Assembly (NCBI GenBank): GCA_027036135.1
Contig: JALVSY010000007.1
Span: forward strand, 100,880-164,879
Source of the DNA: Pyrodictiaceae archaeon
Lineage (GTDB): Archaea; Thermoproteota; Thermoprotei_A; Sulfolobales; Pyrodictiaceae
Direction: 5' to 3'
DNA length: 64,000 nucleotides
The notes under the pieces are model-generated. The model did not search any database. It saw only the letters and a program-made list of their open reading frames with translations, and was not told where the DNA came from. Shown one piece after another: positions 46,658 to 64,000 of the stretch. Each line of letters opens with the position of its first letter. The first letter of the stretch is position 1. The position numbers and the translations under genes were made by a program.

Positions 46658-47307
46658 ACCGTGTCATTAACATCCTCGTTGCCTCGGTTGGGGGCCAGGG
46701 AGGCCTAACACTCTCCAGAGTAATAGCAGCAGCCGCCGTCATGGCAGGCTACAGTGTGAGAACCGGGGAGACGCTGGGAATGGCGCAGCGCTTCGGCTCA
46801 GTAAAGAGCTACATAAGAATAGGCGTGGATACACCGGTATACTCCCCGATATTCGAGCCAGGAGAAGCAGACATCCTAGTAGGAATGGAGGTTACAGAGG
46901 CCTACCGTAACCACCACTACCTAAGACCCATGGGACTAGCAGTGCTGAGCACCGAGGAGAAGCCGCCAATAAGCGTCTCACTAGGCAAAGCAGAGCCAGT
47001 AACCATGGAGAAGCTCATAGAGGCCCTGGAGAGCCACGGGGCAGAAATCATCATAATCGATGCACCACGACTAGCTAGAGAAGCAGGCAACCCTAGGGCA
47101 GCGAACATGGTCCTACTAGGAGCAATGAACACCGCGAAGAAAATCCTACCAGACAACGCTGTAGAGGAAGCGATAAAGGCCATACTGGGAGGCAAACGCG
47201 CAGAAACCTCGATCAAGGCCTACTACCTAGGCAAGGAATACACAGAGAAACACAAACCAAGCAAAGAACATAAAGAGGACAAAACACATGCATCTGAACA
47301 AACGTAG
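46654..47307 (+). CDS. iorB: Indolepyruvate:ferredoxin oxidoreductase beta subunit
   Basis: VGGQG, GMAQRFGSV, NMVLLGA. Confidence 0.95.
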   Translation: MNRVINILVASVGGQGGLTLSRVIAAAAVMAGYSVRTGETLGMAQRFGSVKSYIRIGVDTPVYSPIFEPGEADILVGMEVTEAYRNHHYLRPMGLAVLSTEEKPPISVSLGKAEPVTMEKLIEALESHGAEIIIIDAPRLAREAGNPRAANMVLLGAMNTAKKILPDNAVEEAIKAILGGKRAETSIKAYYLGKEYTEKHKPSKEHKEDKTHASEQT

Positions 47308-47332
47308 TTTCGTTCTTTTCCCTTTTCTCTAT
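47308..47332 (+). terminator. Pyrimidine/T-rich archaeal terminator after iorB
   Basis: TTTCGTTCTTTTCCCTTTTCTCT immediately after the stop codon. Confidence 0.55.
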
Positions 47333-47397
47333 TCACCTATCCTATACAGCGCCGGGAGCGTAAGCCTTAGCTAGAACCCCCGTAACATAGACTATAC

Positions 47398-47533
47398 TGG
47401 GGTGTCCCGCCCGGCGCCCCAGAGGTCCCCGGCGGCAGTCATATGCGCACCCGACTCCTCATAAATCAGAGAGACGCTTGCCTACCATCCCGCCGCGGGT
47501 CATGCCCCTGGGGCGCCGGGTCTCGGGCCCCCA
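47398..47533 (-). ncRNA. Putative BHB-processed hairpin RNA with box C/D-like elements
   Basis: Perfect 13-bp inverted repeat (47410-47422 / 47508-47520); GGGG-CCCG-AGA ... CGGG-ACA-CCCC forms a bulge-helix-bulge; internal CUGA, AUGAGGA and AUGA boxes. Confidence 0.65.
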
Positions 47534-47711
47534 CAAGCTTCTAGGAGAGGCATTACGTGATAAGGCCTCAGCTTTTCCTCGGAGGAAAGGAATCTCCTCT
47601 CTTGCCTGCCAGTCCTTCGTGACTGTCTAGGATTATAGTGCTTCGCCACACGTTTTAGTGCCCCCTTTATGCCTACTGTAGTATCGAAGAAGGAGCTTAG
47701 GAGGTACCCTT

Positions 47712-48491
47712 GTGTTGCGTATTGTTAGTCTCGCGCCCGCTATTACTGAGACTCTTGTGCTCCTCGGAGCCGGTGACGAGTTGGTCGGTGTCTCTGTTTA
47801 TTGCAGGGACTATGCCCCGGGCAAGCCCGTTGTCGGTACCTATATCTCGGTTATTTGGAGGAGACTCGAGCAGGCCCGGCCCGATATCGTCTTGTTGCAG
47901 GATTATGTGCAGCGAGGCCTCTACGAGGAGCTGAGGAGACAGGGCTACCGGGCCTATATTCTCCCGCTCCCAAGCAGCCTCCACGGCGTGGCAGAGAATG
48001 TTGCAGCTGTTGGAGCCGTTACTGGGAGAAGGCTGGAGGGCCTCGTGCTTGCAGAGAAGCTTGAGGACGAGATAACCCAGCTCGGGGAGACAAAGCCGGA
48101 GAAAACTATGAGGGTTTATGCCGAGTACATCTGGCCCGACTACACCACGCGCATGAGCCCCGGGGCACTGAGCTTCGCTGACCATGCTCTCCGCTTGGCG
48201 GGCGCGGAGAACATCTACGCAGGGGAGCCACGAGCCTTTGTCGAGCCACGGCCAGAGGACGTCATCGCAGCCGAGCCAGAGGCCGTGATAGTCTCGGCCG
48301 AGAAGCTCATGAATCTAACCAAGGAGAAGTACCTAGAGAAGACCCCCTGGATAAGAAGACTAAGAGCCATAGAGGAGGACAAGCTAATAATGCTGAGAGG
48401 CGGGCCCGGCCAAGACCTAGCACACCCAGGGCCCTCGATAATCGAGACCACTAAGAAACTAAGAACACTCCTAAAGAAATACAGAACATAA
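47712..48491 (+). CDS. Helical-backbone metal receptor (BtuF/cobalamin-binding-like), no signal peptide
   Basis: RIVSLAPAITETL, VGVS..C, PDIVL, PGPSI. Confidence 0.85.
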   Translation: MLRIVSLAPAITETLVLLGAGDELVGVSVYCRDYAPGKPVVGTYISVIWRRLEQARPDIVLLQDYVQRGLYEELRRQGYRAYILPLPSSLHGVAENVAAVGAVTGRRLEGLVLAEKLEDEITQLGETKPEKTMRVYAEYIWPDYTTRMSPGALSFADHALRLAGAENIYAGEPRAFVEPRPEDVIAAEPEAVIVSAEKLMNLTKEKYLEKTPWIRRLRAIEEDKLIMLRGGPGQDLAHPGPSIIETTKKLRTLLKKYRT

Positions 48492-62351: not shown

Positions 62352-64000
62352 TTGGATACAGAAGACAAACAAGTCAGAGTACTCGTCGTGTCAACGAGAA
62401 CTAGTCTTGCCCCTCTCCTAGAAGCCGCGAGGAGAATCAATGAGGCCCGAGCGGCCAGTATTAGTGTGATTATTTATTATCAGCACGAGCTTGATAGAGA
62501 CCCTGGCCTCCTAGAGGAGCTCTGTAGTGACGCTGTAGAAGCAGACATTGTCCTTATTGACTGGAGGTCTGGGATGAGCAGGGCCCTGGAGCGGCTATCT
62601 GAGTGCCTCTCGAGGAGCAGGGCCCGTCTAGTGATCCCGCTCGTGGCTGGTGATCCGCGTGTACTGAGGCTTGCAAGGATAGGTATCCTTAGGGGCTTTG
62701 AGCCCCGAATGGGGAGCAGCGATCGCATAGACTTGTCTAGGGTGTGGAGGTTTTTCAGCTGGCTAGAGAGGAGCAAGCTGGCTAAGGCTGCTCCGGGGCT
62801 ACGTGATGCGAGGCTATGGGCTCTTGCAGTGAGGTACTGGAGTGAGGGGGACTCTTGGAACATTGAGCAGATGCTGAGAATGCTTCTCTCCAAGCTAGGC
62901 CATGGGCTCAGCTACGAGCCGCCGCGCCGCATAGTAGAGCCTGGTAAGGTTTACTTGCCCGGCAAGGGTGTGCTGGGGCTCCGTGAGGCACAGAGACTCA
63001 TAAAGGAGCCTAGGGTCGCGATTCTACTATATGCTGGTATGCACTTTGACCAGACACGAGTCGTCGCAGAGGCCCTAGCAGACGCGCTTGGGAGAAGAGG
63101 TATAGGCGCGTACATGGTTATTGGGGGTGGAAGCGAGGACTTAGTCGGCCAAACCAGGCTCATAGAGAAGGCACTGAGCGGGGCGAGGATAGAGGCACTG
63201 ATTAATCTCCAGTGGTTCCGCATAGAGGGAGGCCCCTATGGCGGTGACTACGAGGAGGCCATTAACCTCCTCAAGAGATTTGATGTACCTCTCATAGACG
63301 GGCTCATCATGTATATGAGCGAGGTAGAGGAGTGGCGGAGGAGAAGCCAGGGCTTATCACCGATAGAGGTCTTGGCTGGCGTCGCGCTACCCGAGGCTGA
63401 TGGCGCTATTGAGCCGATACCCCTCGCAGGCCTCGATGAAACCAGGGCAAAGAACATGGTGGTTCTCCGCGACCGTGTCGAGAGGAGAGCTGAGCGCATA
63501 TCCTCTTGGGTTAGGCTCCGGGGCAAGAAGAACAGCGAGAAACGAGTAGCAATCATAATCTACAATTACCCGCCGGGCAGAGACAACCTGGGATCAGCTG
63601 CCTATCTCGACGTGTTCCGGAGCATTGAGAGACTCCTAGCCGCGCTAGGCTCCGAGGGGTATAAGGTGGAGCAGCTCTCAGCCACTGAGCTGAAGAGGCT
63701 CTTTGTTGAGGAGGGCCTCTTTAATGCGGGTAAGGAGCCGCCGAGGAGCTGTGGGATACGCGTAGGCGCAGCGACTTACAGGAAGTGGTTTAGTGAGCTG
63801 CCACGATGCCTCCGTGACCGCGTTGTGGCGGTGTGGGGCTCTCCCCCTGGCGAGCTAATGGTTGACGAGAACGGGTTATGTATACCCGGCATAGTTGTCG
63901 GTAATGTCTTCATCGGTGTGCAGCCGTCAAGGGGGGTGCATGAGGATCAAGAGAAACTGTACCATGACAAGGATCTCCCACCGCATCACCAGTACGTGAC
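62352..64000 (+). CDS. cobN: CobN/magnesium chelatase H family subunit (5' part; runs off the window end)
   Basis: Not in the ORF track; open frame from TTG 62352 with LPEADGAIEP, KRVAIIIYNYPPG, AAYLDV, GNVFIGVQPSRG, LYHDKD. Confidence 0.92.
   Translation, partial: MDTEDKQVRVLVVSTRTSLAPLLEAARRINEARAASISVIIYYQHELDRDPGLLEELCSDAVEADIVLIDWRSGMSRALERLSECLSRSRARLVIPLVAGDPRVLRLARIGILRGFEPRMGSSDRIDLSRVWRFFSWLERSKLAKAAPGLRDARLWALAVRYWSEGDSWNIEQMLRMLLSKLGHGLSYEPPRRIVEPGKVYLPGKGVLGLREAQRLIKEPRVAILLYAGMHFDQTRVVAEALADALGRRGIGAYMVIGGGSEDLVGQTRLIEKALSGARIEALINLQWFRIEGGPYGGDYEEAINLLKRFDVPLIDGLIMYMSEVEEWRRRSQGLSPIEVLAGVALPEADGAIEPIPLAGLDETRAKNMVVLRDRVERRAERISSWVRLRGKKNSEKRVAIIIYNYPPGRDNLGSAAYLDVFRSIERLLAALGSEGYKVEQLSATELKRLFVEEGLFNAGKEPPRSCGIRVGAATYRKWFSELPRCLRDRVVAVWGSPPGELMVDENGLCIPGIVVGNVFIGVQPSRGVHEDQEKLYHDKDLPPHHQYV

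Follow-up and report, generated by a model that had tools for sequence, protein, structure and literature searches.

In the genome of a Pyrodictiaceae archaeon (contig JALVSY010000007.1 of assembly GCA_027036135.1, from which a stretch of 64,000 nt, hereafter the window, was analyzed), we found on the minus strand, at 47399-47531, a canonical bulge-helix-bulge (BHB) motif around a 50-nt core arranged in the manner of a small RNA (sRNA) of the C/D-box kind. Judging from sequence comparisons, we consider this element, with a probability of roughly 60%, to be an exon-less, endonuclease-excised, probably circular and tRNA-directed C/D-like guide RNA; it is a member of a small, patchy family that may be moving horizontally. 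The evidence consists of its structure, of conservation and covariation within a family of homologs, of complementarity to tRNA together with a tracking of tRNA isoacceptors, and of the presence of the enzymes concerned in the genome; from these we infer transcription, cleavage, circularization, assembly into a ribonucleoprotein and methylation. An initial annotation, made from the letters of the window, had already proposed a stand-alone guide RNA, an interpretation that is partly supported by the comparisons given here, while the complementarity of one guide to tRNA-Ala, the isoacceptor tracking, the tRNA matches of other members, the mobile neighbors and a CRISPR (clustered regularly interspaced short palindromic repeats) spacer are new. 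Throughout, G000 denotes the genome of the window, G0xx the other genomes compared, C a contig and L a locus.

Read from 47531 to 47399 on the minus strand, the order is GGGG-CCCG-AGA-CCCGGCGCCCCAGGGG ... CCUCUGGGGCGCCGGG-CGGG-ACA-CCCC, so that the BHB, the stems and the box strings claimed in the initial annotation are all present where it had placed them. From the sequence, the outer helix is formed by GGGG (47528-47531, with a fifth G at 47532) and CCCC (47399-47402), and the central 4-bp helix by CCCG (47524-47527) and CGGG (47406-47409). The two 3-nt bulges, AGA at 47521-47523 and ACA at 47403-47405, sit 3' of the 4-bp helix, one on each of the opposite strands, an orientation which we take to be that of the canonical archaeal BHB of pre-tRNA introns. 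The splicing endonuclease cuts after the second nucleotide of a bulge, i.e. the predicted cuts lie between 47522 and 47521 and between 47404 and 47403, and the predicted excised piece (47521 to 47404) is 118 nt long. Inside the BHB follows a 16-bp inner stem, whose 16-nt 5' strand (47505-47520) is indicated by sequence and fold, with compensatory changes in the close members, and whose 16-nt 3' strand (47410-47425) is indicated by sequence, fold and alignment. After a small internal loop comes a second stem of 10 bp with one bulged C, which closes the C/D-like core; its 5' strand is CCCGCGGCGG (47490-47499), and its 3' strand, again from sequence, fold and alignment, is CUGCCG, the bulged C and CGGG (47428-47438). 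Flanking helices are thus present on both sides of the BHB (4-bp outer, 16-bp inner), and they are kept by covariation.

The minimum-energy fold of the minus strand is a rod of -88.6 kcal/mol (z = -4.0), and none of 200 shuffles was as stable. The plus strand folds too (-78.9 kcal/mol), since the element is near-palindromic, with loss of the G-U pairs and with the bulges on the wrong side of the helix; the G-U pairs, the kink-loop (K-loop) and the canonical bulge orientation are found on the minus strand only. Both strands of the four contigs longer than 100 kb were scanned for strict BHBs with cut sites 20-400 nt apart and an outer helix of at least 3 bp, and the window element was the sole match with an inner stem of at least 15 bp, the maximum in a control with mirrored geometry being 14. 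With short inner stems, matches were no commoner than in the mirrored control (729 against 730 at 6 bp), and the geometry alone is therefore no evidence; it is mainly conservation that indicates more than chance, homologs in other genomes having the BHB as their limit on either side. A GC-rich palindrome arisen by chance, or a bidirectional terminator, would suit the intergenic position, a 404-bp gap between iorB (PF01558, ending at 47307) and a periplasmic-binding-protein gene (PF01497, starting at 47712), both on the plus strand, and would also suit the strong folding of both strands. Compensatory conservation across three genera and metagenomes, a conserved unpaired K-loop and guide, and the lack of a U tract 3' of the hairpin already disfavor such an explanation, which we regard as very improbable.

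The family comprises eight genomic copies in six of the 29 genomes of one archaeal family, belonging to three genera, together with two metagenome contigs (L234 and L235). Besides the window copy, the window genome holds a second copy (C30:283806-283917), G002 holds two (on C180 and C8), and G019, G015, G009 and G020 are the other carriers, each genome thus having one or two. A similarity search of 40 relatives recovered the copies in G002 and G019, a covariance model (R1) added those in G009, G015 and on C30 of the window genome, and a pattern search with a second model (R2) added the one in G020; a scan of metagenomes yielded L234 and L235 along with one chance match. At E ≤ 0.05, R2 found matches in seven of the 29 genomes, among them G010, whose match is an ordinary C/D sRNA that lacks a BHB. 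A sample of 151 genomes from the order gave no member beyond the family, and in a sample of 151 from the phylum the only extra matches were two core-only ones, also lacking a BHB. The copy on C180 of G002 is syntenic with that in the window, with iorA, iorB and the binding-protein gene 93-94% identical at the protein level. The C8 copy of G002 and the G019 copy have unrelated surroundings, and what they share with the window is bounded by the outer helix, and no similarity was seen between the flanks of non-syntenic copies. A look at synteny in other species of the genus gave no DNA match, IorB being just 37-38% identical there.

The initial annotation had suggested a covariation analysis, and this came out in favor of the proposed fold. 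Among the six copies that could be closely aligned, 96.7% of the cells pair, against 45-55% with slid partners, and three pairs have changed on both sides. The inner stems of the copies in G009, G015 and on C30 of the window genome differ wholly in sequence and are still fully paired, within a persistent frame GGGG-CCCG-A(G/A)N ... CGGG-A(U/A)N-CCC. The C30 copy (L100 1501-1612) is a shorter BHB-bounded element, GGGG-CCCG-AAA ... CGGG-AUG-CCCC, with a perfect C' box UGAUGA. All ten members have CGGG as the 3' strand of the central helix, while CCCG as the 5' strand is found in eight of the nine aligned members and in G020, the C180 copy of G002 having CCCA. The 5' bulge is AGA, AGC, AGU or AAA in the nine aligned members and AGG in G020, and the C8 copy of G002 keeps the outer helix by means of G-U pairs. 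The complete geometry with flanking helices (hBHBh', two 3-nt bulges and a 4-bp helix) is strict in eight of the ten members and relaxed in G002:C180, with A-C at the fourth pair, and in G015, with a 2-3-nt bulge.

Within the second stem, the core reads, in order, GAUGGUAG, GCAAGCGUCUCU, CUGA, UUU, AUGAGGA, GUCGGGUGCGCAU and AUGA. These are a degenerate C-like box (47482-47489, containing AUGGUAG at 47482-47488), a 12-nt D' guide (47470-47481), a conserved K-loop (47456-47469) made up of the D' box CUGA (47466-47469), UUU and the C' box AUGAGGA (47456-47462), a 13-nt D guide (47443-47455) and a D-like box AUGA (47439-47442), the latter indicated by sequence and alignment. Guide spacers of 12 and 13 nt are as in archaeal box C/D sRNA (about 12 nt). 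The K-loop pattern C-(C/U/A)-G-A, 3-12 nt, (R or U)-(U or G)-G-A-N-G-A occurs in all nine aligned members and in G020, the loop itself being replaced by a 4-bp helix in G019, and this conserved D'-loop-C' motif has the pattern expected of a K-loop or kink-turn (k-turn) for L7Ae. At the other end of the core, a canonical C box (RUGAUGA) and D box (CUGA) would form a k-turn with tandem G-A and A-G pairs. In the k-turn pair nomenclature quoted in PMC6009581, eight members were checked for the 1b-1n pair, which adjoins the closing stem, a set that leaves aside the C30 copy of the window genome and that of G020, and all eight have retained G-A there. At 2b-2n, the window copy has G-G, G002:C8 has G-U and the G019 type has A-C, and a canonical terminal k-turn is seen in just two distant members, i.e. 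G009 (GUGAAGA/AUGA) and G015 (AGGAAGA/CAGA), both of which have canonical C, D, C' and D' boxes. The wording "degenerate C box" for AUGGUAG was therefore a fair description, as far as degenerate goes, of a position where there is no conserved C box; an alternative register, GGGAUGG, lies at 47485-47491.

Curated RNA families did not account for the element. Neither tRNA nor rRNA nor any Rfam family at gathering score was found in the window, the curated C/D family included, and the latter gave no match on seven member loci either; the initial annotation had named a known Rfam family as one finding that would overturn its proposal. A permissive Rfam scan of 47200-47800 returned chance-level sub-threshold matches only, namely one to a miRNA family of plants, on the plus strand (E 0.069), and one to PyrR205 (E 7.1), both dismissed. 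The sole H/ACA match in that interval had an E of 7.1 and 12.7 bits against a gathering score of 35.6. In an H/ACA guide, a pseudouridylation pocket lies between a lower stem and an upper one that carries a k-turn, with an ACA 14-16 nt 3' of the pocket; the window element does have an ACA, in the 3' bulge, but no upper stem separates its single-stranded arms from the K-loop.

The guides were compared with the 37 distinct tRNAs identified by ARAGORN, with 500 shuffled guides as a control. For the D guide, the target found was the anticodon stem-loop of tRNA-Ala(CGC), encoded on C30 of the window genome (complement of 62710-62786), with nine Watson-Crick pairs over C34-A42, a mismatch at U33, an A-U pair at U32 and a wobble of G31 with U. 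A Watson-Crick run of nine was equaled by 23 of the 500 shuffles. The complementary core, UCGGGUGC, is the part of the D guide that is conserved across genera, and the guides of other members pair better with tRNA-Ala: 10 nt in the G019 type (1/500 shuffles), 10 nt in L234/L235 (3/500), and 12 of 12 in G009 (0/500), where the run reaches 13 nt when the first base of the D box is counted. tRNA-Ala(CGC) is identical at 77 of 77 positions in G009, G015 and G019. Between the window and its syntenic counterpart on C180 of G002, the guide differs at exactly two positions (GCGCAU versus GCACGU), facing nucleotides 34 and 32 of the tRNA, and it is at these same two positions that the CGC and UGC isoacceptors of tRNA-Ala differ (U32/C34 versus C32/U34). 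The window guide, with A and G, fits U32 and C34 of Ala-CGC, and the C180 guide, with G and A, fits C32 and U34 of Ala-UGC.

Other members match other tRNAs or other parts of the same one. The guide of the C8 copy of G002 is complementary to the anticodon loop of tRNA-His (11 nt with one G-U, 36/500 shuffles), that of G015 to the D arm of tRNA-Ser (9 nt, 26/500) and that of G020 to tRNA-Leu (10 Watson-Crick and 2 G-U pairs), and the D' guide of G009 is complementary to the 3' acceptor strand of the same tRNA-Ala that its D guide matches (9 nt, 27/500). The tRNA-Ala match of the window guide gains weight because of the better matches elsewhere, the isoacceptor tracking and these matches of other members. 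The D' guide of the window, in contrast to the D guide, is an orphan, shuffled guides matching rRNA and tRNA no less well. Its core AAGCGUC is conserved within the genus only, and a 12-nt exact match of its target on contig C13 falls in apparent coding sequence and was treated as chance. In rRNA, neither guide had a best match that stood out from shuffles (285-294/300, and 150/300 for a 12-nt variant of the D guide), and GACGCUU is absent from 16S and 23S. The search of rRNA and tRNA that the initial annotation recommended has thus turned up a tRNA target for one guide and no rRNA target for either. A study of Pyrobaculum reports that 32 of 110 C/D families target tRNAs and that in about 80% of those sRNAs the other guide is an orphan (PMC6009581), with which tRNA targeting together with an orphan second guide would be in agreement.

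Several results weigh against a tRNA-directed guide RNA. The strong folding of both strands is one of these, and the non-canonical terminal C/D pair of the window copy is another, along with the ability of the "boxes" of the G019 type to base-pair with each other. The window guide match is modest when taken alone, and with G-U pairs allowed it cannot be distinguished from shuffles, of which 360 of 500 do as well; the guide of the C30 copy in the window genome is not significant against tRNA-Val (168-179/500). The family is patchy, no member having been found in 22 of the 28 other genomes of the archaeal family or in three of the four other genomes of the genus (G004, G001 and G003, which are 99%, 86% and 60% complete), and a comparison of member flanks found no promoter element common to the members. 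Lastly, the nucleotide designated by the N+5 rule, counted five positions upstream of the D box, varies, being G35 for the window and the G019 type, U33 for G009, C32 for the C8 copy of G002 and C36 for the C30 copy, and to our knowledge 33, 35 and 36 are not usual or known sites of 2'-O-methylation. This scatter and the unusual sites make methylation the least secure step.

The same scatter (32, 33, 35, 36) is what could be expected if the RNA bound tRNA as an antisense RNA and did not methylate it, with K-loop and clamp stabilizing a ring that masks, sequesters or protects one anticodon loop, possibly in conflicts between mobile elements and their hosts. The degenerate terminal k-turn of most members, the complementarity of both G009 guide regions to a single tRNA (13 and 11 nt), and the mobile-element neighborhoods and CRISPR spacer described below point in that direction. 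The spacing of 12-13 nt and the order of the boxes are, on the other hand, those of methylation guides, canonical C, D, C' and D' boxes are kept in G009 and G015, and a masking function has no direct support. Migration of the target by 2 nt has moreover been described in real guide families, in the Pyrobaculum study (PMC6009581). An antisense role hence seems unlikely to us, though not far-fetched.

For the guide-RNA reading, the machinery is at hand: the window genome encodes two EndA paralogs (PF01974), with ORFs at C30:170973 and C7:997554, as well as RtcB and fibrillarin. Its best candidate for a BHB flanking 23S rRNA, a processing stem between C30:216474-216491 and 219675-219692 (UGGUG-CCCG-GGG-CUCCU ... 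AGGGG-CGGG-CCA-CGCUG), shares the central helix CCCG/CGGG with the element, and no strict BHB was found around the 16S of this genome. In the pathway that we propose, a short minus-strand precursor would fold into the long rod with the canonical BHB at its base, the two-paralog splicing endonuclease would cut both 3-nt bulges, and RtcB would join the ends, giving a 118-nt circle (47521 to 47404) and, as a by-product, a joined leader-trailer. The circle would be a 26-bp clamp holding the 50-nt C/D-box-like core, whose K-loop (CUGA-UUU-AUGAGGA) and non-canonical terminal k-turn may bind L7Ae, Nop5 and fibrillarin. The 13-nt D guide would then pair with nucleotides 31-42 of the anticodon stem-loop of tRNA-Ala(CGC), leaving U33 unpaired, and the N+5 rule would place a methyl group on the ribose of G35, the D' guide being an orphan; were there no methyl transfer, the RNA might simply bind or chaperone tRNA-Ala.

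The BHB being the archaeal intron signal, and BHB introns being described in the 5' untranslated region of an mRNA and in rRNA (PMC7714728), the element might instead be the intron of an unrecognized host RNA or mRNA, in which case the joined flanks would be the functional product. Joining 47522 to 47403 opens no reading frame, the flanks are dissimilar between non-syntenic copies and contain no Rfam family, and there is no tRNA or rRNA in the window to serve as host. A host intron is accordingly improbable in our view, and the proposal of the initial annotation that the RNA stands alone, without a host gene, agrees with these observations.

Comparison with known systems shows related arrangements but none identical. 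BHB-dependent circles are known from tRNA introns, rRNA intermediates, one mRNA leader and the permuted signal recognition particle (SRP) RNA of Thermoproteus (PMC7994747, PMC4731332, PMC7714728, PMC12558985), and in two of these sources the tRNA-Trp intron is the one case of a C/D guide enclosed by a BHB (PMC7714728, PMC12558985). This intron, found in Euryarchaeota (Haloferax, Pyrococcus and Halobacterium), is likewise a BHB-bounded C/D guide, is excised by the endonuclease and found circular, and has guides that pair with the anticodon arm of one tRNA, directed at C34 and U39 (PMC7714728, PMC12558985, PMC9014305). The window element, in contrast, lacks tRNA exons and is flanked by a few unconserved nucleotides; its putative target, tRNA-Ala, is encoded elsewhere and is intronless, the predicted site is G35 and not 34 or 39, and between the BHB and the boxes there is a clamp of 26 bp. 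The lineage of the window differs as well, having a two-paralog endonuclease.

Like the element, the Thermoproteus SRP RNA has a non-coding gene that stands alone, with a BHB formed by leader and trailer; that BHB is cut in vitro by the heterotetrameric endonuclease, and the ends are joined into a functional circle (PMC4731332). It is, however, a permuted universal RNA that needs circularization to restore a helix, whereas the window RNA is not permuted and is a putative guide; processing of the former was established by RNA-seq and a cleavage assay, while for the latter it is predicted. Circular box C/D sRNAs of Pyrococcus, Thermococcus, Sulfolobus and Nanoarchaeum (PMC7994747) are similar as circular C/D guides of thermophiles, and in Thermococcus their circularization is described as requiring the Rnl ligase. 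The BHB of the window element, by comparison, would fix a single junction by way of EndA and RtcB. A free-standing BHB-flanked C/D sRNA was not found described in the full-text literature, a search that had subscription journals outside its coverage.

The nearest analog appears to be the "MITE-like sRNA" class of one Pyrobaculum species, MITE standing for miniature inverted-repeat transposable element. In the report on it, these sRNAs (sR131, sR133, sR137, sR139, sR141 and 10 further copies) have a C/D-like core within conserved imperfect inverted repeats, guides that are orphan or directed at non-conserved tRNA positions (C16 of Leu, C15 of Thr, C39 of Gly), and locations far from genes in unstable regions, one locus contributing 13.6% of reads (PMC6009581). 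They differ in size and number, with about 77 nt and 15 copies against about 133 nt and one or two per genome in the window family, and in their boxes, C/D being near consensus and C'/D' degenerate in Pyrobaculum, while in the window family C'/D' are conserved and C/D degenerate (PMC6009581). In the text of that paper, no BHB is invoked and the word "endonuclease" has 0 occurrences, and the two classes are compared here by description, not by sequence (PMC6009581).

Another alternative is that we are dealing with a mobile element of DNA, MITE-like in its inverted repeats and sRNA-like in its core, which mobile genetic elements have spread or carried along; the stem and "BHB" would then be terminal inverted repeats acting at the DNA level, and any RNA would be incidental. 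Homology does stop at the repeat ends, with non-syntenic copies in unrelated contexts, and several copies have suggestive neighbors. The G009 copy has an archaeal phage-type integrase (PF16795) at a distance of about 370 nt and, also nearby, a HerA/FtsK-type ATPase of 1073 aa that matches a viral family (phrog_5156, 2e-40). The C30 copy of the window genome adjoins a HerA-like ATPase gene, and the G015 copy adjoins tnpA and tnpB of an IS200/IS605 insertion sequence (IS), together with an HgcC-like RNA. Around the G019 copy there are at least 11 kb of open reading frames (ORFs) that lack a significant Pfam match, with one PaREP1 match below the cut-off, and the neighbors of L234 and L235 are likewise ORFs that have no significant Pfam match. 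The genes next to the window copy are ordinary metabolic ones.

A further sign of mobility is found at G000:C7:579352-579373, where 22 nt repeat the 5' BHB half of the element exactly; they lie within a 53-nt CRISPR spacer (579342-579394; L002 1491-1543) near the degenerate-repeat end of the array. The spacer agrees with the G019 copy at 32 of 33 positions and, by eye, with L235 over 32 nt, and then diverges, no match having been found for its other end. The protospacer would consequently be a relative of the element with another interior. Read on the minus strand, the CRISPR repeat ends in ATTGTAAG, which resembles what we take to be the 8-nt CRISPR RNA (crRNA) handle of crenarchaeal repeats; if the array were read on that strand, the crRNA would be complementary to the element RNA.

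With 15 such elements published for one Pyrobaculum genome, each in imperfect inverted repeats (PMC6009581), the MITE-like explanation has a precedent as well as neighborhoods and a spacer in its favor. The initial annotation had considered that a multicopy MITE would speak against its proposal; we found two copies in the window genome and one or two elsewhere, i.e. not many, with the Pyrobaculum class as a close analog. The repeats are imperfect exactly in the manner of a BHB, the geometry of which is kept while the stem sequence changes, and G-U pairs and covariation between guide and tRNA point to selection on RNA. The window copy, syntenic in G002, sits between housekeeping genes, a target-site duplication was not noticed, though no test was aimed at one, and no copy was found in collections of viruses, phages or plasmids. 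Among viral contigs, a gapped pattern gave 85 stretches, about the number expected by chance for an 18-base pattern, none of which scored with R1 (best E 0.063), and two exact strings, one taken from the BHB half and the other from the spacer, had no matches there. We therefore consider a purely DNA-level element unlikely, at about the same level as an antisense RNA; as an account of how the copies have spread, it is compatible with a guide RNA.

Combining the two, one may speculate that the elements are exon-less "free introns", i.e. BHB-bounded guide cassettes for which integrated viruses, plasmids or IS elements serve as vehicles, that are excised and circularized by the tRNA-splicing machinery of the host, whose guides are reprogrammed one by one against the anticodon loops of single host tRNAs (Ala, His, Leu, Ser), and which CRISPR sees as foreign. 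This seems to us a doubtful extension, a little less likely than either the antisense or the DNA-level alternative. Should it hold, the aim of such cassettes could be 2'-O-methylation at unusual loop positions, altering decoding or blocking anticodon-loop nucleases, and the spacer and the mobile neighborhoods in any case raise the possibility of horizontal cassette exchange. More generally, a guide RNA with an intron signal whose exons were lost, or that never had any, would have a defined EndA/RtcB route to a circle with a single junction. It might connect tRNA introns with mobile sRNA-like elements and with the way in which new guide genes are born, and it would provide a natural set of guides aimed at tRNA anticodon loops.

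A number of weak matches were rejected as members on inspection, i.e. the similarity match in G006, found to be spurious, as well as G042, G012, L233, G019:1291547, two places in G006, G009:84747, G010 and two genomes of family f28. A loose-pattern search of contigs gave at least 119 matches in GC-rich bacteria, attributed to chance, and the same BHB with a short insert (40-70 nt) had three matches in 351 genomes of the class against about 13 in a reversed control, again chance. The two f28 genomes share an identical 70-nt hairpin RNA candidate (L283:357-426 and L284:1501-1570) with an 11-bp GC closing stem and GAUGA and GGUGA motifs, a core-only R2 match with no BHB. In the region of G009:C1:84747-84848 (L282:1476-1627, minus strand) there is a GC-rich hairpin of -121.9 kcal/mol with symmetric GA/GA internal loops, which are not BHB bulges. 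The HgcC-like RNA of G015 (L097:2113-2209, minus strand) is a sub-threshold match (27 bits, E 0.009) at the 3' end of the TnpB/OrfB_IS605 gene, about 470 nt from the member, and looks like a transposon-associated guide RNA of that IS.

Upstream of the element, the initial annotation had pointed to a TTATCA about 25 nt away as a possible promoter. It is present at 47558-47563 on the minus strand, preceding the helix's first G by 26 nt, as a possible TATA-like element, and is kept in the syntenic G002:C180 copy at another distance; the other members have no counterpart at a fixed distance. Between the element and the downstream gene, at 47577-47599, the plus strand carries an inverted repeat, CUUUUCCUC-GGA-GGAAAGGAA. 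Two features of the assembly were also observed. Contigs C3, C10-C12, C25, C34 and C38 of the window genome, of 1-3 kb, have 17-25% G+C against an assembly mean of 50% and look foreign or contaminant. Contig C13 (1863 bp), which carries tRNA-Phe and tRNA-Gly, is a 96-97% identical variant of two stretches of C16, which suggests either heterogeneous strains or a duplicate that the assembly has collapsed.

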